A program made the translations under genes and the position numbers. Source: Candidatus Nomurabacteria bacterium (GTDB lineage: Bacteria > Patescibacteriota > Patescibacteriia > UBA1558 > GWA2-36-10). From it: a stretch of DNA of 64,000 nt. Positions 4,749-59,940 of the stretch are shown one piece after another. Each line of letters opens with the position of its first letter. Positions within the stretch are counted from its first letter, which is position 1. Where the stretch lies: contig JACKFO010000002.1 of the NCBI GenBank assembly GCA_020632415.1, forward strand, positions 119,947 to 183,946, written 5' to 3'. Below the pieces are notes generated by a model, which was given only the letters and a program-made list of their open reading frames with translations, did no database searches and was not told the origin of the DNA.

Positions 4749-4752
4749 AATT

Positions 4753-4971
4753 ATGAAAGTCAATGAATTAAGACAATTGAGCATGGCTGATTTAAATAAG
4801 AAATTGCAAGAGTTAAGAAATAAAACCAGAGAGTTAAGATTTAGTATTGCTAATAATCAATTAAGTCATGTTAAGGATTTAGATAAAACTAAAAAAGAAA
4901 TTGCCAGAATTTTGACGATCATTAATCAAAAAAGAAGTGTTAGTGAAGGTCAATCTGTAGAGGCTAAATAA
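4753..4971 (+). CDS. rpmC: 50S ribosomal protein L29
   Basis: It has the expected size and position, with an L29-like ELRQLS...LQELR stretch. Confidence 0.85.
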   Translation: MKVNELRQLSMADLNKKLQELRNKTRELRFSIANNQLSHVKDLDKTKKEIARILTIINQKRSVSEGQSVEAK

Positions 4972-4995
4972 AAATGACTAATTAAGATCAAAAAA

Positions 4996-5250
4996 ATGTC
5001 AAACGAAGTTATTAAAAGAAAATTGCAGGGAGAAGTTGTCAGTAATAAAATGGACAAAAGTGTTATTGTCAAAGTTATTACTATTAAAACTCATCCTAAG
5101 TATAAAAAGCAATATAAAGTTAGCCGCAAATATTCAGCTCATGATGAGAAAAATGAATATCAGATTGGCGACGTGGTGATTATTGAGGCTTGCCGACCAT
5201 TGTCCAAGACAAAGCGTTGGAGAGTTTTAAAGAAAGCTACTAAAGCTTAA
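4996..5250 (+). CDS. rpsQ: 30S ribosomal protein S17
   Basis: ...[16 protein letters not shown]...HDE...GD matches S17. Confidence 0.9.
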
Positions 5251-5281
5251 GGTTTAAAAGATTTAATTTTAATTCACAGAT

Positions 5282-6001: not shown

Positions 6002-6553
6002 ATGAAAGGTTTGAAAGAATTGTATAATAAAGAAATCAAAGCCAAGCTAAAAGAAGAATTAGCTTTAGGTAATCTAATGTCCGTGCCAAAGATGCAGAAG
6101 GTCTCTATTAATATTGGCCTAAGTCGTGCCGCTCAAAACAAAGAATGGATTGAGATCGGCAAAAGCATTTTGGAGCGTATTAGTGGCCAAAAACCAGTTT
6201 TGACCAAAGCTAAAAAATCTATCTCTAATTTTAAAATCAGAGAAGGCATGGTTGTTGGCGCCAAAGTTACTTTGCGCGGCCAAAGAATGTATGATTTTAT
6301 CGACAGATTTGTGAATAGCACTTTGCCTCGAATGAGAGATTTTCATGGTCTAGATTTCAAAAAAGGCTTTGATGGAAATGGGAATTATACAATTGGTTTT
6401 AAAGAGCATATTATTTTTCCAGAAATCGGTATGGAAGATGTTGACAGGACGCATGGCTTGGAAGTGACCTTTAATACTAGTGCCAAGAAAAATGACCACA
6501 CTTTAGCTTTACTTAGAGCTTTTGGTTTTCCTTTTAAGAAAAATAAGAAATAA
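6002..6553 (+). CDS. rplE: 50S ribosomal protein L5
   Basis: [15 protein letters not shown] is the L5 signature. Confidence 0.95.
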
Positions 6554-6561
6554 TTAAGAAT

Positions 6562-6756
6562 ATGGCAACAAAAGCACAAATTGTAAAATCAAAAAGATCA
6601 CTAGAAAATCCAAAATATTCTACCAGAATAGTACGTCGTTGTTGGCGTTGTGGTCGAAAGCATGCTTATATGCGTGAGTTTGGATTATGCCGTATCTGTT
6701 TTCGAGAATTAGCTTCCAAGGGCGAAGTGCCAGGCGTAACTAAATCTAGTTGGTAA
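6562..6756 (+). CDS. rpsN: 30S ribosomal protein S14 type Z (zinc-binding)
   Basis: It is 64 aa with a CxxC...CxxC motif, [20 protein letters not shown]. Confidence 0.9.
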
Positions 6757-15784: not shown

Positions 15785-15799
15785 ATTATAGTTAGAATA

Positions 15800-15832
15800 A
15801 AAAACTCTCAAGTCTAATTTGAGAGTTTTTTA
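15800..15832. terminator. bidirectional rho-independent terminator between convergent genes
   Basis: AAAAA CTCTCAA gtctaat TTGAGAG TTTTTT. Confidence 0.75.
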
Positions 15833-15833
15833 T

Positions 15834-16106
15834 TTATTCAGTAATTGTTTTTTCAGAAGGGGAGTATTTTTTATTCTTGATTTTCCACTGATCAACATAT
15901 TGCCCTAAACCTTGCGCCTTGAGTTGGTTAGAACGTCTAGTGGATTGTTGAGACCATTCAACTAGAGAGCTAAAGTTAATTTTATAACGGCCCTTGACAA
16001 CGATGTATTTTAACTCTTCGTTTTTGATTGCCTGGCGAATAGTTTTGCTAGAAACGCCAAATAATTGGCCAGCTTGAGAAACTGAAACTCGAATAATATT
16101 TTCCAT
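15834..16106 (-). CDS. small excisionase-family (MerR-like HTH_17) DNA-binding protein
   Basis: LFGVSSKTIRQAIKNEELKYIVVKGRYKINFSSLVEW resembles excisionase-type HTH proteins (…LGVS..TIYR.I..G.L…..G.R.RI…L..WL). Confidence 0.6.
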   Translation of the reverse strand: MENIIRVSVSQAGQLFGVSSKTIRQAIKNEELKYIVVKGRYKINFSSLVEWSQQSTRRSNQLKAQGLGQYVDQWKIKNKKYSPSEKTITE

Positions 16107-16414
16107 AGTTTTTTTAATTATCTATTTAAGTATACACTATTCTATACTTTATTACAAAAATAAGAACTTATTTACTTCTTGATCAGCTCGAACAAACGTC
16201 TGTTGAAATACGTTGTTTGCGTAGACTTACTGTTTTTTCTTTGGGCAAATAAGCTGAATCGAAGAGCTGGGGACAGAATCATTATTTGCTTAAAATAATA
16301 GCTTATTTGTTTTCTTTTCTTGTTTTTTTATGCTATAATTTTCGTTATTAAAGAATAATAATCAAGCCTGGTTTTAGGCTTTTGGTATTTACAAATATAG
16401 AAAATAGTGTTATA

Positions 16415-16478
16415 ATTTAGGCTAAGATTAGATTAATTATTTCTATTTTTTATATTTTTAGCTAATATTAGCCTAAAT
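16415..16478. promoter_or_regulatory. inverted repeat containing the palindrome GCTAATATTAGC, upstream of the ECF sigma gene
   Basis: ATTTAGGCTAA (16415-16425) is the reverse complement of TTAGCCTAAAT (16468-16478). The palindrome GCTAATATTAGC sits at 16461-16472. A TGTTATAAT extended -10 lies at 16407-16415. Confidence 0.45.
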
Positions 16479-16527
16479 AATCAAGTAAATTTACTGTAAT
16501 ATTTGTAGTAGTTTTGCGTCTTACCTT

Positions 16528-17082
16528 ATGAAAAGCTTAAAAAGCAATTTGAAAGAAAAAATAGCCTTTCTGAAGCTTAAAAGCGGAGATAGCGAAGCTT
16601 TCGGTTTTTTTTATGATCAATACCTTGGTCAGATCTATCGTTTTATTATGATGAAAGTTTCTGATCAGCAAGTTGCCGAAGATTTAACTCAAGATGTTTT
16701 CTTGAAAACCTGGCAACATTTAGTTGATCAAAAAAGCTTGAGTCATTTCCGGGCTTTCATTTTCCGAGTTGCTCGTAATGTCGTGATTGATCATTATCGT
16801 CAAAGTGGCAAACAAAACATTCCTTTAGAACACATTAGTGAAACTGTTGATGAAGCAGTTAACATTGATAAAAAGTTAGAGATTAAAGTAGAGGTCGAGC
16901 AATTGTTGCAGATTCTACAAAAACTCAAACCGGAGTATCAGGAAATTCTTGTTCTACGCTTTGTAGAAGAAATGTCATTTGATGAGATTGCTGAAATTCT
17001 CCAAAAAGATAAAAATAATGTTCGCGTCACTTTGCATCGAGCTTTAACTAAATTAAAACAATTAAGCGAAGAAAAGATTTAA
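16528..17082 (+). CDS. ECF-type RNA polymerase sigma factor (sigma-70 family, group 4)
   Basis: Region 2 reads DLTQDVFLKTWQHL...FRAFIFRVARNVVIDHYR. Region 4 reads ILVLRFVEEMSFDEIAEIL. Confidence 0.9.
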   Translation: MKSLKSNLKEKIAFLKLKSGDSEAFGFFYDQYLGQIYRFIMMKVSDQQVAEDLTQDVFLKTWQHLVDQKSLSHFRAFIFRVARNVVIDHYRQSGKQNIPLEHISETVDEAVNIDKKLEIKVEVEQLLQILQKLKPEYQEILVLRFVEEMSFDEIAEILQKDKNNVRVTLHRALTKLKQLSEEKI

Positions 17083-17094
17083 TAAATTAATCTT

Positions 17095-18474
17095 ATGAGT
17101 TTAGAAAAACAATTTGCCAAATTAAAGAATTTGGAAAAATTCCAAGCAAATCAAGATTGGCAAATGACAAGCAAATATGATTTGATGTCAGAGATTCATT
17201 CTCAAGCTAGATTGATGAAAGCTCAACAATTAAGTTCTGCTGAAAAGTTTGATCTTTTTGTGATGCGCTTTACTCGTCGTTTGATGCCTTCAGTAAGCAA
17301 AATGGTTGCTGGTTTATTGATTGTGGTGATGGGCTCTGGCGTTAGTTTTGCCGCACAGGCGTCTGTTCCAGGACAAGCTTTGTGGCCAGTTAAACGTTCG
17401 ATCGAAAAGGCTGAGTTAACCTTGGCTTTTAGCTCGGTTACTGAGACAGAAGTTCACATTAAGCATCTAAACAAAAGATTAGAAGAAATCAATAAAATTG
17501 TTGAAAAGTCTAAAGTTACTGATGAGCCGACTAGACTTGCTAAAAATGAAAAAGCAATTAAACAAGTAGTCCAACACTTAGAAAAAGAAGCTGTAGCTGT
17601 TGATCAAAATTTAAAAATAGTCAAAGAAGATACTAAGCCAATTGAAGTTGTTAATTTAGCTAAAAAAGTAACTGAAGTTGCCAAAGAAGCTAAAAAACAA
17701 GTCGGAGTTTTAGAAGGGCAAGTTGCTCAAACTGATCGCAGTGTCGTTTTAAAAGAAGCTTTAGACAATGTCAAAGTGATTAACGAAGAGGTTAATCGAA
17801 CTGCTGTAGATGTTGCAATTCAAGTTCATGAAGAGATAGTTGCTGCTAAAGTAGAAAAAGTTGCTAAAGAAATTTTAGAAAATCATTTTGATCAAGCTCA
17901 AACCGTGATTGATGATCAAGAAATAGAAGATGTTACTAAGGCTGTTGTTGAGTTAATCTTTGAGGATATCAATGAATTGAATGATGAAATTCAGGCTACT
18001 AAAGAAAAAACAGAGATTATTTCTGCAGAAAATATTGGTGAAGCAGTAACTAAGGCAAATAGTGTTGTTGCTGATCAAGAATTACCTGTAGATGGTGGTC
18101 CAGCAAAAGTAGAGGTAAAAGATATCAAAGAAATTAAAGAACAATCAGGTGAAGCACAGGCCACTTTAGAGCAGGCCAAAACTTTATTGGAAGAAGGATC
18201 TTTGAAGGATGCGGTGGCTAAAGTTGTAGAAACTAAAAAAATTCAGGAAAAAACTGCTACAGTCATTAAAAATATTGAACAAGCCGTTCAAGAAAAAGCA
18301 GTGTCAGACAAAGCCGAGGCTAGCGCCACATCAACTGTTCAGCAGATCAAACCGATAAATATCCAAATTAGTTCCACCACGATTGAAAAAGCAATGATTA
18401 ATGATGAAGATGCTTTGGTAGGAGAAGAAGAAAAGATTAAAGAAGAAGCGATTACTGATATTTTAAAACAATAA
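17095..18474 (+). CDS. putative anti-sigma factor (single TM, extracytoplasmic coiled-coil-rich domain)
   Basis: It is translationally coupled to the sigma gene. It has a short cytoplasmic N-terminus, one TM (MVAGLLIVVMGSGVSFAAQA), then a long Lys/Glu/Val-rich domain. Confidence 0.6.
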   Translation: MSLEKQFAKLKNLEKFQANQDWQMTSKYDLMSEIHSQARLMKAQQLSSAEKFDLFVMRFTRRLMPSVSKMVAGLLIVVMGSGVSFAAQASVPGQALWPVKRSIEKAELTLAFSSVTETEVHIKHLNKRLEEINKIVEKSKVTDEPTRLAKNEKAIKQVVQHLEKEAVAVDQNLKIVKEDTKPIEVVNLAKKVTEVAKEAKKQVGVLEGQVAQTDRSVVLKEALDNVKVINEEVNRTAVDVAIQVHEEIVAAKVEKVAKEILENHFDQAQTVIDDQEIEDVTKAVVELIFEDINELNDEIQATKEKTEIISAENIGEAVTKANSVVADQELPVDGGPAKVEVKDIKEIKEQSGEAQATLEQAKTLLEEGSLKDAVAKVVETKKIQEKTATVIKNIEQAVQEKAVSDKAEASATSTVQQIKPINIQISSTTIEKAMINDEDALVGEEEKIKEEAITDILKQ

Positions 18475-18480
18475 TTTAAA

Positions 18481-18830
18481 AATAAATCCCAAAGCGCGTA
18501 TTTAGTTTAGGTTGTGGATACATAGCTTTCGTTACCATGCACGGAAGGAAAGCTATAATCCCTAACTTATCGCTATATCGCGCGCGATTAGGGGTTATTG
18601 TTTTGTTCCTAGACAAAAATAATATTTACTTTCGGGGTCCGTACCCGAGCTTAATTGTTGCCTATAAGTTTAGTAGCCAGAAAGGTCGATGTGGCTAAAA
18701 ACTGCAGGAGCTAAGCATTATAGTTTTCCGCCAAAGGTGGATTAGTCTAAATGCATTTAGATGCTGACGATTTAGTTAAGAGTAAATTTTGTTTCCTAGA
18801 GAACATCTTATTAATTTAAAAAAAGAATAC
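18481..18830 (+). ncRNA. GC-enriched, highly structured ~300-nt leader or candidate small RNA upstream of the large surface-protein gene
   Basis: Several perfect hairpins are present. Example 1 is GGATacATAGCTTTC...GAAAGCTATaATCC. Example 2 is CCCTAA...ATCGC...GCGAT.TAGGG. Example 3 is TCGGG gtccgta CCCGA. Example 4 is TAGCCA...TGGCTA. A 14-nt palindrome CTAAATGCATTTAG lies at 18747-18760. Local GC is clearly above the flanks. Confidence 0.35.
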
Positions 18831-21800
18831 ATGAATTTAGTAAAGAAATTTTCAATCTTTGCTTTAATGATTGCTACAGTGTTCTCAATGTCCGGCGGCG
18901 TTTTATCCGTAAAAGCTGCTGGTAATTATGCTGCTGGTTCTTTACTTGCCCAATCTGGTGTAAGTGGAGCAGCTGTTTATTACATTGGCTCTGATGGCAT
19001 GAAATACGTTTTCCCAGATGTTAAAACTTATAACAGCTGGTACGAAAACTTTGACAATGTGGTTAGAGTATCTGTCGCCGAGTTAGATATGTACGCCGAT
19101 GGTGGTGCTGTCTCAGTTCGTCCAGGTACCAAATTAATCACTCACGAAAACACAGCAAAAATTTACGCTATTGAACCAGGTGGTGTAGCACGTTGGATTC
19201 CAACTGCTGAAGTTGCCGAAGCTTTATACGGCGCTAACTGGGGATCAAGAGTTATGGATGTAATTCCAGGCTTCTTCTCCTCAAGTTATACTGCTGGTTC
19301 TGATTTATCAAACACCTTACCAACTGGTACTATTGCCATGGAACAAGGTGGAAGTACTTATTATTACATTTCTAACGGCACCAAGAGACCATTTAGCTCT
19401 ATGGATGCTTTTGAAGCTAATAACTTCAATTTAGACAATGTTTTAGTAACATCTTTATCTTCATATAGTGCTGGTACATCCATCACTGGTGAAGAAATTG
19501 CTTTATCCGGCTATATGGCCGCTGAAGGTGGTAATGAAGTTGTTAGTGGAAATTTAACAGTGAGTTTAGCTGCTAATACTCCAGCTTCTACCACATTGGT
19601 AAAAGGACAGGCATTAGCTGATTTAGCTCACTTTAATTTTTCAGCATCAAATGCTGGTTCAGTTACAGTAAGAACATTAAAAGTTAAGAGAGTTGGCGTT
19701 TCTGAAGACGCAGACTTAACTTCTATTTATCTTTATGATGGATCAAATAGATTGACTGATAATGTTAGTGTTTCAAACAACTATGCAACATTTAATGATG
19801 CTAGTGGTTTATTCACTATTCCAGCTGGTACTACAAAAACTATTTCTGTTAAAGCAAACATTTATAGTTCAGCTAATGCTGGCTCAACAGTTGCTTTAGA
19901 AGTAGAAGCTGCTGGAGATGTAACTTCTAACTCAAGTTCAGTTGGTGGTTCATTCCCAGTTATGGGCAATACCCATACTATTGCTACTGCTACTTTAGCT
20001 GGCGTAGCTTTGGCTGGTACAACCTATCCAACAGCAAGTACTGTTGATGCTGGTGAAACAGAATACACAGTTTGGAAAAATAGTGTTAGTGTAACACAAA
20101 GATCTGCTAGTCTTGAATATTTGAGACTAAGAAATGTTGGTTCAATTGCTAACAACGATCTACAAAATTTAAAATTATTTGTAGACGGCGTACAAGCAGG
20201 TACATCACAGGCCACTTTGGATAGTGATGGCTATGTTACATTTGATTTAACTGGTTCCCCGGTAACTTTAACTACTGGCACTCGCGTAATCGAGGTCAGA
20301 GCTGATATTGTTGGCGGTTCTTCCAAGACATTCCAAATGTCTTTACGCTATGCTGTTGATGTAGTTGTAAAAGATACTCAATACAACGCTTACGTAACTG
20401 CTTCTGGTACTTTACCAGCCTCAGCTACAAGCGCTACTGTAAATTCTGGTAGTTTAACCGTTACCAAAATGACAGATTCTCCATCGGGCAATGTTCAAAA
20501 AGATGCTTCAGGTGTAACCTTGGCTTCTTATGAATTAAAGGCTTATGGTGAAAGTATTAAGATTGAACACTTACGTGTTACAGCCACTTCTACAAATGAC
20601 CAATCAATTAGTCAATTGAGAAATGGTGCTTTATTTGCTGACGGTGTACAAATTGGTTCTACGGCAGATATTCATATTGATGAAGCTGGCACTGATACAG
20701 TAACTGCAACTTATACTGATTACAACCTAGGTTCTTCCTTAATTGTAAATCCTGGTACCCCAGTTACTTTGGAAGTAAAGGCTGATATTTATGATAACGA
20801 TGGTACAAATAATATCACCGCAGGTGATTATTTGAAGGTAACATTGTCAACTTATACATCTGGTGCACAAAGAATGAGTTCATTAGGTTATATTGACGTA
20901 CCTACAAACTCAGTTGATGGCGGTACAGTTTCAGTAGTTACCGGTTCATTGAGTGTTGCTAAGAATACTTCTTATGGCAACCAGAACACAATTGATGATT
21001 TGTCAGCTTATAAGTTGGGATCATTTATTGTTTCTGCTACCGAAGGTGAAGATGTAAATATTAGTCAATTTACAGTTGGTGTTACTTATACAGATACCGT
21101 TTCTGATAGTGATACAGCTGCAACTACCTTGTCTGATATGTATTTGGTTTATGGTGATAATACTACAAATCCAAGAGGAACTGTTTCTGCTAGTAGCAAT
21201 AATTTCTCTGTAAATTATGTCATGCCAAATAACACTCAGATGCAGGTTGATGTTTATGCCAATGTAAACAATACTCCTGATGCTACAGATATAGTTTCGA
21301 CAACCTTGGCAGTTTCTGGTACAACAGCTGGTTCTGGTACCAATGCTGATGTTACAGCAGTATCTGGACAGACAATTACATTCCAAGATGGTTCAATCAC
21401 AGCCGCTGTTGATCCAACTACCGCGGTAACTGATATTGCTATTGCCGGTGGTTCTACAACTGCTGCTAAATTTAAATTAACAACTCAATATGCTCCTATT
21501 GTCTTGAAAGACTTTACCGTTAAAATGGTAACAGCTTCCAGTTCAAGAAGTGTTATGGGTGCTAAATTAGATTTAGATAACGATGGCATCGCTGATACTC
21601 CAAGAGTAAGCTTTGTTTATAATGCTGCGACTAATGCAAATTATGCTGCCTTCACAGGTTTGAATAACAACGTAGCGGCTAATACAAACAAAACTATCGG
21701 TGTTATTTTGGACTTGAATGACGTTATTGACAACGGCACATCTGGCGATGATGTAAAAGTAAACTTCTACAGTTACAAATACTCAATCGGTGGTGTAGAT

Positions 21801-22553
21801 ACAACAGCAACTCCTTCAAGTTTGAACGGTAATTCAATTTATGTACGTAACACTAAACCAACTGTTACCCAAGTAAGTACTGGTGGTACATTGACCAACG
21901 GTGCCGAAATGGATGTTTACAAGTTTACAGTAACAGCTGATCAAAATGCTAATGTTTCATTAAAACAAATGAAATATGCTGCTACTTTGACAGATGTTTC
22001 TACAACAGCTAACACATTGACATTGGGTAGTTGGAGATTCTTCCGTGGCTCTACAGATATCACTGATAGTGTATCTATAGAAAATGCTACAGGAACAGCT
22101 CCTGTAAGTTTGAAGTCTGGTGGAACAGCTTTTGCAGAAGGTGATACTACTGCAATCGTTAGATTCAGCACAGAAGAAGTTATCGAGGCTGGTGCTTCAG
22201 TAACTTATACTATCAAAGCTACTCCAAGTGGCTTTACCACTGCTTCTGACGATGATTATTTCACTATTCAAATGAGTGGTGATGCATCAGCTGCTACTGC
22301 TGGTAATGTTTACTTGCAAGACTCAGATGCAACGTCAAGTGAATATATCGCTGGCTTAGGTGCTGGTGATACCGATGATAGTGTACAAGCGGCCAACTTT
22401 ATCTGGTCAGACAATTCCAAGGTTTTGCATAATGCAACTTTGGCAGACACTACATCAGGCACTTCTGCTGCCTCAACTTCATCTGGAGATTGGACAAATG
22501 GTTATTTGATCAAGGATAACTTGCCAAGTAATTCAGTTCAATGGGTATACTAA
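18831..22553 (+). CDS. large secreted, signal-peptide-bearing Thr/Ser/Gly/Ala/Val/Asn-rich repeat protein; candidate S-layer or adhesin
   Basis: The signal peptide is MNLVKKFSIFALMIATVFSMSGGVLSVKAAG. Two N-terminal YYI(G/S)xxG.K..F...F..DNV repeats follow. After them come tandem divergent ~100-aa beta-rich modules recurring as ...L(Y/F)xDGV...V.F... The upstream ORF start at 18789 is TTG, so the ATG at 18831 is preferred. Confidence 0.75.
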   Translation: MNLVKKFSIFALMIATVFSMSGGVLSVKAAGNYAAGSLLAQSGVSGAAVYYIGSDGMKYVFPDVKTYNSWYENFDNVVRVSVAELDMYADGGAVSVRPGTKLITHENTAKIYAIEPGGVARWIPTAEVAEALYGANWGSRVMDVIPGFFSSSYTAGSDLSNTLPTGTIAMEQGGSTYYYISNGTKRPFSSMDAFEANNFNLDNVLVTSLSSYSAGTSITGEEIALSGYMAAEGGNEVVSGNLTVSLAANTPASTTLVKGQALADLAHFNFSASNAGSVTVRTLKVKRVGVSEDADLTSIYLYDGSNRLTDNVSVSNNYATFNDASGLFTIPAGTTKTISVKANIYSSANAGSTVALEVEAAGDVTSNSSSVGGSFPVMGNTHTIATATLAGVALAGTTYPTASTVDAGETEYTVWKNSVSVTQRSASLEYLRLRNVGSIANNDLQNLKLFVDGVQAGTSQATLDSDGYVTFDLTGSPVTLTTGTRVIEVRADIVGGSSKTFQMSLRYAVDVVVKDTQYNAYVTASGTLPASATSATVNSGSLTVTKMTDSPSGNVQKDASGVTLASYELKAYGESIKIEHLRVTATSTNDQSISQLRNGALFADGVQIGSTADIHIDEAGTDTVTATYTDYNLGSSLIVNPGTPVTLEVKADIYDNDGTNNITAGDYLKVTLSTYTSGAQRMSSLGYIDVPTNSVDGGTVSVVTGSLSVAKNTSYGNQNTIDDLSAYKLGSFIVSATEGEDVNISQFTVGVTYTDTVSDSDTAATTLSDMYLVYGDNTTNPRGTVSASSNNFSVNYVMPNNTQMQVDVYANVNNTPDATDIVSTTLAVSGTTAGSGTNADVTAVSGQTITFQDGSITAAVDPTTAVTDIAIAGGSTTAAKFKLTTQYAPIVLKDFTVKMVTASSSRSVMGAKLDLDNDGIADTPRVSFVYNAATNANYAAFTGLNNNVAANTNKTIGVILDLNDVIDNGTSGDDVKVNFYSYKYSIGGVDTTATPSSLNGNSIYVRNTKPTVTQVSTGGTLTNGAEMDVYKFTVTADQNANVSLKQMKYAATLTDVSTTANTLTLGSWRFFRGSTDITDSVSIENATGTAPVSLKSGGTAFAEGDTTAIVRFSTEEVIEAGASVTYTIKATPSGFTTASDDDYFTIQMSGDASAATAGNVYLQDSDATSSEYIAGLGAGDTDDSVQAANFIWSDNSKVLHNATLADTTSGTSAASTSSGDWTNGYLIKDNLPSNSVQWVY

Positions 22554-59625: not shown

Positions 59626-59698
59626 GTCAATTGACCTTGAATTAATTTTAATATACACTAAAATAAATAATGGTTGTTTTCAATGATGGAGTTAAACG

Positions 59699-59803
59699 AT
59701 GCGTGAATTGATTGTTCTATCAGCAGGGATCGTTTTTGCCGCCATTGCTTTGTTCATTGGCACTGGCTATGATTCTCTGCAGAGGCAGAAGCGATCTCAG
59801 TAA
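59699..59803 (+). CDS. candidate 34-aa hydrophobic small protein
   Basis: The translation is MRELIVLSAGIVFAAIALFIGTGYDSLQRQKRSQ. An SD GGAG lies 8 nt upstream and a terminator lies immediately downstream. Confidence 0.4.
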   Translation: MRELIVLSAGIVFAAIALFIGTGYDSLQRQKRSQ

Positions 59804-59810
59804 GATCTTT

Positions 59811-59844
59811 TCCCTCCCAACCCTTCTTGACGGAGGGTTTTTTA
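59811..59844 (+). terminator. rho-independent terminator
   Basis: TCCCTCC caacccttcttgac GGAGGG TTTTTT. Confidence 0.8.
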
Positions 59845-59878
59845 AATATGGCTAATATTAGCTAATATTTTATTTATA

Positions 59879-59905
59879 TTAGCACTCCTTGACTCTGAGT
59901 GCTAA
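59879..59905 (+). promoter_or_regulatory. CIRCE operator (HrcA binding site)
   Basis: TTAGCACTC-cttgactct-GAGTGCTAA is a perfect match to the CIRCE consensus with a 9-nt spacer. Confidence 0.9.
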
Positions 59906-59917
59906 ATGCTTTATAAT
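59889..59917 (+). promoter_or_regulatory. sigma70 promoter of the hrcA operon, with the -35 inside CIRCE
   Basis: TTGACT (59889-59894) -N17- TATAAT (59912-59917). Confidence 0.65.
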
Positions 59918-59940
59918 TATTTATACATAAACTTTTGAAG

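Follow-up and report, generated by a model that had tools for sequence, protein, structure and literature searches.

Locus and conserved fold of the proposed leader

The 64,000-nt stretch of the genome of Candidatus Nomurabacteria bacterium analyzed here (the window; contig JACKFO010000002.1) includes three consecutive plus-strand genes, which respectively encode an extracytoplasmic function (ECF) sigma factor, a DUF5667 protein and a secreted surface protein. The last two genes are separated by a 356-nt intergenic gap (18475-18830) that extends from the DUF5667 stop codon to the ATG at 18831 and is left empty by gene callers. Comparison of homologous loci shows, through compensatory changes in the predicted pairs, a plus-strand RNA with about 13 covarying helices arranged in two domains, which spans positions 18466-18805 and is the subject of this work. 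The genes around this element, hereafter the leader, are the following.

16528-17082, plus strand: ECF sigma factor gene (Pfam)
17095-18474, plus strand: DUF5667 gene, encoding an anti-sigma-like, single-pass membrane protein (Pfam; topology read from the sequence)
18831-22553, plus strand: secreted surface-protein gene, 1240 aa (open reading frame, ORF), preceded by the leader

The original prediction, made from the nucleotide sequence of this stretch, was of a GC-rich, hairpin-dense element of about 300 nt upstream of a surface-protein gene. A hairpin-dense structured element is indeed present on the plus strand just before that gene: the minimum free energy (MFE) of the fold is -107.2 kcal/mol compared with -77.7 +/- 5.4 kcal/mol for 100 dinucleotide shuffles (z = -5.46), none of which folds as well, and the fold of the minus strand of the same region has z = -3.13. 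The CGCGCGCG run, also mentioned at that time, lies at 18579-18586. The term "GC-rich" applies only in relation to intergenic DNA, given that the gap has 36.2% GC with a 200-nt peak of 40%, against a window mean of 33.8%; the other intergenic gaps of the window mostly have 9-31% GC, with three at 32-36%. The element is also larger than about 300 nt, its outermost helix starting at 18467, within the last codons of the upstream gene, and its last helix extending to 18805.

For comparison, 80 species-level loci encoding the orthologous surface protein were fetched and searched with the intergenic DNA of the window using nhmmer and blastn. Matches were obtained in six loci, in every case directly upstream of the orthologous gene, and one of these is 81% identical over 347 nt, while the respective proteins are only about 40-45% identical. 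A scan of metagenome contigs with the core pattern (see below) returned 61 stretches, 19 of which are true members; the remaining ones are chance matches in contigs of high GC content or an unrelated match to phage coding sequence. There are 22 distinct leader sequences, the window included. The leader is at least as conserved as the coding DNA around it: the window and locus L010 share 79% nucleotide identity in the leader and 62-70% in the flanking coding DNA.

Two sub-architectures were aligned apart, clade A with seven sequences including the window and clade B with nine. The fold is kept in the homologues from related genomes, and RNAalifold prediction with orthologous loci, which had been proposed along with the original prediction, yields a conserved structure in both clades, with 91 base pairs in clade A and 76 in clade B. 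In clade A, 94.6% of the cells are standard pairs compared with 36-45% when the partners are slid by 1-3 columns, and 38 pairs are changed on both sides compared with 4-11 in the slid controls; the observed values are reached by none of 500 shuffles. The corresponding figures for clade B are 95.4% versus 40-47% paired cells and 19 versus 2-11 pairs changed on both sides. Deriving the structures from the same alignments raises the "paired" measure artificially, yet it cannot account for the excess of double changes. MAFFT aligned both the 5' part and the AAAGGUCG module (see below) in structurally inconsistent ways, and accordingly clade-specific alignments, an alignment-free flank-swap test and iterated covariance models were used. 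Several of the conserved pairs are G-U, in place of which the opposite strand would have A-C mismatches, and these pairs, together with the strand z-scores, assign the RNA to the plus strand. The individual features of the leader in window coordinates are listed below.

18466-18805, plus strand: whole structured leader, consisting of a 5' domain (P1-P4) and a 3' domain closed by P5 (MFE, homologues, RNAalifold)
18467-18474, plus strand: 5' strand of outer P1 (AACAAUAA), pairing with 18595-18602 (UUAUUGUU); equals the last codons and stop codon of DUF5667
18487-18490, plus strand: 5' strand of inner P1 (UCCC), pairing with GGGG at 18591-18594
18494-18498, plus strand: 5' strand of P2 (GCGCG), pairing inside the CGCGCGCG run (MFE structure)
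18506-18571, plus strand: P3-P4 long hairpin, 18506-18536 with 18543-18571
18558-18594, plus strand: near-invariant core, formed by the 3' strands of P3, P2 and P1 together with the intervening junction
18604-18613, plus strand: 5' strand of P5 (UGUUCCUAGA), closing the 3' domain by pairing with 18794-18805 (UCCUAGAGAACA) (MFE structure)
18624-18629 / 18782-18787, plus strand: helix, 4 pairs changed on both sides in clade A
18632-18636 / 18644-18648, plus strand: hairpin, 4 pairs changed on both sides in clade A
18649-18661 / 18763-18776, plus strand: long-range helix, 11 pairs in clade A, 4 changed on both sides, 97% paired
18662-18723, plus strand: AAAGGUCG module, in which stem X encloses a mini-hairpin, the motif and hairpin H
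18662-18674 / 18710-18723, plus strand: stem X, 8 of 13 pairs changed on both sides in clade A
18675-18678 / 18684-18687, plus strand: mini-hairpin of the AAAGGUCG module, a clade A helix
18681-18688, plus strand: AAAGGUCG motif, invariant wherever family members have it
18690-18694 / 18702-18706, plus strand: hairpin H, 4 of 5 pairs changed on both sides in clade A
18726-18741 (18726-18731 / 18736-18741), plus strand: variable hairpin UUCCGC/GGUGGA, all 6 pairs changed on both sides in clade A, 79% paired
18745-18762 (18745-18751 / 18756-18762), plus strand: palindrome hairpin, stem different among relatives with pairing kept
18806-18830, plus strand: A/U-rich unpaired linker with a weak ribosome-binding site, unpaired in the MFE structure and in both clade structures

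In the 5' domain, outer P1 forms a perfect 10-nt inverted repeat (18465-18474 / 18595-18604), and the same pairing is found in the clade A relatives. P1 covaries strongly in clade B (AAAUCC/GGAUUU, GACAAACC/GGUUUGUC and AUAAACCCUA/UAGGGUUUGU), the per-sequence duplexes having energies of -8 to -15 kcal/mol. The 5' strand of P2, which MAFFT misaligned in the window row of alignment A5, is represented in relatives by G-U-compatible variants only (GCGUG, GUGCG and GUGUG, as read from the sequences). P3-P4 comprises 26 pairs in clade A (6 changed on both sides, 96% paired) and 25 pairs in clade B (5 changed on both sides, 98% paired). A conserved insertion in the P4 loop, UUCCCAUGCR (18531-18541 in the window), is present in about half of the members, and the rest have a short P4. 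With flanking proteins that are only 35-60% identical, the 37-nt core is nonetheless near-invariant, and its pattern ATCCCTAACTTATCGCT(N1-3)ATCGCGCGCGA(N2-4)GGG, which is invariant in alignment A3, was found in 27 of 27 members. In the 3' domain, P5 has 11 pairs in clade B (94.9% paired), and in clade A a change from CUAG to UUAAG is matched by a change from CUAG to CUUAA on the opposite side, as read from the sequences. Where P5 was located, 18-29 nt separate it from the ATG; in the conserved structure of both clades, the ribosome-binding region is unpaired.

The palindrome that had been reported as 14 nt at 18747-18760 is real but spans 16 nt at 18746-18761 (TCTAAATG/CATTTAGA), and the proposal that it is the operator of a dimeric regulator does not agree with the comparative data. 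The stem appears among relatives as CCGAA/UUCGG, CAACG/CGUUG, CCGGC/GCCGG, CCUGC/GCAGG and other sequences, with complementarity kept; because the half-site sequence varies while pairing persists, the palindrome is, by this comparative measure, a covarying hairpin rather than an operator or a conserved DNA site. Positions 18747-18759 of this hairpin are complementary at 11 of 13 positions to the start-codon region 18828-18840 (TACATGAATTTAG). Besides the window, only its close relatives L104, L113 and L140 have this complementarity, which may represent a lineage-specific translational switch or a coincidence; as a general pairing of the leader it was rejected, being limited to these four. Kissing of the P4-loop sequence CAUGCA with the palindrome-loop sequence AUGCAU was rejected as well, because the two do not co-occur across members.

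The AAAGGUCG module and other leader types in Patescibacteria

The AAAGGUCG copy at 18681-18688 is the sole intergenic one in the window. Of 55 species loci in which the start codon of the surface-protein gene is well placed, 45 contain AAGGTCG in the 600 nt before this gene, with 48 occurrences in the sense and one in the antisense orientation. The density of AAGGTCG on the plus strand upstream of the orthologous gene is 1.48 per kb, compared with 0.03-0.07 per kb elsewhere. Constrained folds reveal a common layout in which a 7-10-bp stem X is followed by 1-3 nt, AAAGGUCG plus a purine, and hairpin H, the 3' strand of which leads directly into X'. The window type differs from this layout in having an extra mini-hairpin and a longer 3' spacer; a window-like X/motif/H topology is found in about 30 other loci.

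The pairing within the module was assessed independently of any alignment by swapping flanks between loci. The median free energy difference (ddG) is -5.45 kcal/mol for a locus' own flanks versus -1.40 kcal/mol for swapped ones (Mann-Whitney p = 2e-13), which supports covariation. The iterated covariance models (R1-R3) recovered as many as 40 matches at E <= 5, with the large majority lying on the sense strand upstream of the gene; R1 was too narrow, and R2 and R3 are centered on Falkowbacteria-type sequences. In alignment A12, which was built with R2, 13 of 14 pairs are changed on both sides, and 95% of the cells are paired compared with 40-49% in the slid controls. A pseudoknot partner for AAAGGUCG (a GACC tract) was sought by reading the sequences, and none is conserved across members.

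Additional copies of the motif are present in two loci. In L072, two copies (AAAGGTCG and AAGGTCG) are located at 6514-6590, in the 5' untranslated region (UTR) of a second gene for a secreted protein, immediately downstream of a TTGACA-N17-TATAAT consensus promoter, and in both L030 and L072 three copies of AGGTCG precede the main surface-protein gene. The position of the copies in this predicted 5' UTR of L072 fits a signal that acts at the RNA level.

In other lineages, the window-type 5' domain is replaced by different elements. Among these is a second highly conserved leader block, GGGGRAGCGGGATTCCGGYTGATTTGC (GGGGRAGCGGGAUUCCGGYUGAUUUGC), which is located 56-408 nt before the ATG of the surface-protein gene in loci L001, L002, L012, L022, L025-L033, L040, L041, L048, L051, L053-L056, L063, L067, L069, L075, L077, L080 and L151, and for which Rfam gave no match. 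The reverse complement of this block is often found about 2-2.9 kb upstream, close to the sigma factor gene. P0002, the closest homologue of the protein (51% identity), has the other leader architecture; thus, protein similarity is no predictor of leader type.

Gene context, probable transcription unit and other candidate identities

The gene order is the same in all 22 members, namely PDZ protease, ECF sigma factor, DUF5667 protein, leader and surface protein, and the layout with a sigma factor, an anti-sigma-like protein, a long gap and the surface protein also holds in most of the 80 species loci. The downstream 1240-aa protein has 377 homologues of about 1100-1350 aa in Patescibacteria. 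Sequence searches of Pfam and PDB with this protein gave no match; for some of the homologues, Pfam hits to PG_binding_1 or SLH are recorded. The N-terminus is signal-peptide-like, as judged by eye only.

Three elements are conserved upstream of the ECF sigma factor gene in 15 loci.

16388-16416, upstream of the ECF sigma gene: sigma-70-type promoter TTTACA-N17-TATAAT
16460-16473, upstream of the ECF sigma gene: palindrome AGCTAATATTAGCC
16495-16520, upstream of the ECF sigma gene: ECF-type promoter TGTAAT-N16-CGTC (consensus TGTAAY-N16-CGTC), ending 7 nt before the ATG

The short distance between the predicted ECF promoter and the ATG suggests that the sigma factor mRNA is leaderless. The TGTAAY-N16-CGTC consensus is found only before the sigma factor gene and is absent between the DUF5667 and surface-protein genes in every member; upstream of P1, the members have no consistent sigma-70 consensus. 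No intrinsic terminator was detected between the DUF5667 gene and the RNA or between the RNA and the ATG: the sole terminator-like match, at 18631-18649, is an internal conserved hairpin, the tail of which is paired in the long-range helix 18649-18661/18763-18776. From the missing promoter consensus, the missing terminator and the overlap of P1 with the upstream stop codon, we infer that the leader is co-transcribed with the ECF sigma factor and DUF5667 genes. One promoter-like sequence is present within the leader.

18620-18643, plus strand: ECF-promoter-like TAATATTT-N12-CGTA (TAAY-N16-CGT), overlapping the helix 18624-18629/18782-18787 and the hairpin 18632-18648

Only six sequences, all of clade A, have this motif at that position; L050 and clade B lack it.

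Several other identities of the element were searched for and set aside. In Rfam 15 (4227 models, gathering thresholds), no match was found in the whole window or in 17 related loci, so that the covariance-model scan suggested for the original prediction assigns the element to no family; at E <= 10, the region 18300-19000 gave chance-level matches only (E >= 0.12). The scan for tRNA and tmRNA yielded none. A repeat or mobile element was rejected in that the region is single-copy in the window and the viral-contig scan gave only the unrelated phage coding match. A coding gene was rejected as well: Pfam gave no match for the 53-aa ORF at 18537-18698, the ATG of which lies in the P4 loop segment that is absent from many homologues. 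Also rejected were a sigma-70 promoter (TTACCA-N16-TATAAT at 18532-18559), the -35 part of which is missing in short-P4 members and which coincides with a covarying helix, and an ECF promoter in the invariant core, where the cognate TGTAAY-N16-CGTC is absent. Literature searches on DUF5667, on the motif and on structured RNAs of this kind in Patescibacteria returned nothing relevant. The leader family, its size and its near-universal tie to the sigma/anti-sigma/surface-protein cassette appear to be new, although structured mRNA leaders as a kind are known.

Elsewhere in the window, a 90-aa helix-turn-helix (HTH; excisionase-like) ORF is encoded on the minus strand at 15834-16106, flanked by the PDZ protease gene and the ECF operon and divergent from the latter. 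The HTH protein is 74-86% identical across 12 syntenic loci, which exceeds the conservation of the sigma factor. A perfect hairpin, AAAAAACTCTCAAG..TTTGAGAGTTTTTT, with A and T runs at 15799-15831 separates the convergent PDZ protease and HTH genes and, from its sequence, looks like a bidirectional terminator. The window also contains other long intergenic gaps, at 2694-2993, 4749-5281 and 59626-59934 (300-533 nt, 29-34% GC).

Explanations for the leader and comparison with known systems

The explanation that we favor, with somewhat better than even confidence, is that 18466-18805 encodes a factor-bound RNA that acts in cis, as a leader or intercistronic element of the surface-protein mRNA, and belongs to a Patescibacteria family absent from Rfam. 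A long leader of the surface-protein mRNA, one of the possibilities envisaged in the original prediction, is supported as the best reading; a generic stabilizing hairpin is not: with its roughly 13 helices, near-invariant 37-nt core and broadly conserved AAAGGUCG bulge, the element goes far beyond that. Under the favored explanation, the AAAGGUCG bulge, exposed between two stacked helices, would dock a putative trans-acting factor, most likely a protein. The bound factor and the compact fold 5' of the coding region would govern how the 3.7-kb mRNA is stabilized, processed or elongated, and the output of the surface protein would thereby be uncoupled from the upstream sigma/anti-sigma genes. 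The helices drift freely, whereas the unpaired bulge and junction nucleotides are invariant, which argues for specific contacts rather than mere stability. The conservation of the leader, together with the presence of the motif in 45 of the 55 sampled species, suggests that the leader is an important site of post-transcriptional control over the cell surface, the interface by which episymbiotic Patescibacteria contact their hosts.

Several observations weigh against this explanation. The module of the window obtains a weak score of 17.9 bits with R3, a model derived mainly from other lineages (E = 1.5; 18671-18713; search of 716 kb, both strands), and 12.8 bits, which is within noise, with R2, so that the case for its homology to the wider module is made by motif, position, strand and topology. 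Outer P1 is invariant in clade A and hence is without covariation proof. The conservation exceeds the need of a simple stabilizer, and ligand binding or catalysis may be involved. In addition, the ECF-like sequence at 18620-18643, if it acts as an internal promoter, may give an additional, shorter transcript starting near 18650, and the transcription start, co-transcription and processing are themselves inferred from sequence.

The main rival, the principal reading of the original prediction, which we consider unlikely, is a passive stabilizing 5' UTR as in the S-layer genes of Lactobacillus, which would shield the abundant surface-protein mRNA from 5'-end-dependent decay without any specific partner. 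The location upstream of the gene of a large secreted protein, the very stable fold and the failure to find an expression platform are all compatible with such a role, for which the long 5' UTRs of slpA in L. acidophilus and L. crispatus, which form stabilizing structures, provide a precedent (PMC3666127). However, a 5' hairpin would suffice for this purpose, yet the 37-nt junction core is near-invariant, and the 8-nt unpaired bulge is invariant in every aligned instance across diverse lineages while the helices drift; furthermore, the downstream protein, which had no match in the Pfam and PDB sequence searches, is only putatively an S-layer protein.

A more far-reaching scheme, which we regard as distinctly improbable, casts the leader as the RNA part of a new Patescibacteria envelope control system, either as a large ligand-sensing or self-processing RNA or as an RNA bound directly by the adjacent sigma/anti-sigma signaling pair. 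Were this scheme true, surface-protein mRNAs would widely carry the AAAGGUCG bulge as a recognition signal.

The chances of a ligand-sensing riboswitch or a self-processing ribozyme, in which the invariant junction would be the pocket or active site and which would control the gene or cleave the polycistronic transcript, appear to be low. The element does have a complex, aptamer-like multi-helix fold with invariant junction nucleotides, conservation is concentrated in junctions and bulges, and the location in the 5' leader, possibly intercistronic, is one where cleavage would be useful. Nevertheless, no expression platform was found, be it a terminator/anti-terminator or a helix sequestering the ribosome-binding site, and because the last helix, where located, ends 18-29 nt before the ATG and the ribosome-binding region is unpaired, the classical riboswitch or attenuator logic, and with it the riboswitch-like element suggested initially, is unsupported. 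There is no ligand-linked gene context either, the element being always located before the same surface-protein gene and thus tied to a single gene family without a metabolic connection. Moreover, the lineages share only the small AAAGGUCG module, with the remaining architecture replaced, and no Rfam riboswitch or ribozyme model matches.

An independent trans-acting non-coding RNA gene that is located here by chance, a variant of which (an independent small RNA) had also been considered at the outset, is very improbable. Its size and complexity are typical of stand-alone non-coding RNAs and the gap is empty in gene calls, but the element always adjoins the downstream gene on the same strand, shows no recognizable promoter of its own, lacks an intrinsic terminator in the stretch from the last helix to the ATG, and lies at a constant spacing of 18-29 nt from the start codon where P5 was located. 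Finally, a DNA-level control region, in which the conserved blocks would be promoter or operator sites rather than RNA structure, is very improbable as well. The ECF sigma factor gene is located directly upstream, the core contains AAC-N16-CG, 18620-18643 resembles the cognate ECF promoter and 18532-18559 matches a sigma-70 promoter. However, dozens of compensatory changes, like the conserved G-U pairs, show that selection acts on the RNA; no member has the exact ECF consensus in this region, only six close relatives share the 18620 motif, short-P4 members lack the -35-like segment of the 18532 match, and the palindrome sequence is not conserved. An internal promoter may nevertheless exist alongside the RNA fold.

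Returning to the favored explanation of a factor-bound leader, several known systems can be compared with the present one. In slpA, the leader hairpin is roughly 100 nt. Like the slpA 5' UTRs, the present element is a long structured leader that precedes a secreted surface-protein gene and leaves the ribosome-binding site free; unlike them, it is about 340 nt in size, has 13 helices, a near-invariant core and a motif kept across much of the phylum, is probably located inside an operon after sigma/anti-sigma genes, and shows no sequence or model similarity to the slpA leaders.

The ribosomal-protein leaders (L10, S15 and L20) are protein-binding, autoregulatory mRNA leaders. The present leader resembles these in that it is tied to one gene family, has unpaired conserved nucleotides in a bulge and junction between covarying helices, and shows no apparent metabolite link. 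It differs in that the downstream gene encodes no RNA-binding protein and no Rfam leader model matches. The EAR RNA of the Bacillus eps operons, the LoaP leader hairpins and the RfaH ops sites are leaders or recruitment sites for processive antitermination. These are likewise conserved elements in or before long cell-surface operons and combine a short invariant motif with a hairpin. No sequence or model match between them and the present leader was found, and the analogy is one of position only. A conserved complex fold in a 5' leader is also characteristic of riboswitches, but in the present leader no expression platform was found, and its gene context is not ligand-related.

With respect to size, helix count, strong covariation and conserved junctions, the leader is comparable to OLE, GOLLD, ROOL and raiA. 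These RNAs usually are stand-alone genes, whereas the present RNA abuts a start codon, and none of their Rfam models matches it. Large complex bacterial RNAs of enigmatic role are, to our knowledge, rare, and Patescibacteria (the candidate phyla radiation, CPR) are a very large, mostly uncultured bacterial group with tiny genomes, the regulation of which is little known. The leader adds a defined target to the large complex bacterial RNAs in this little-studied phylum, and the cassette of an ECF sigma factor, an anti-sigma-like gene, the leader and the surface protein forms one defined unit for study.

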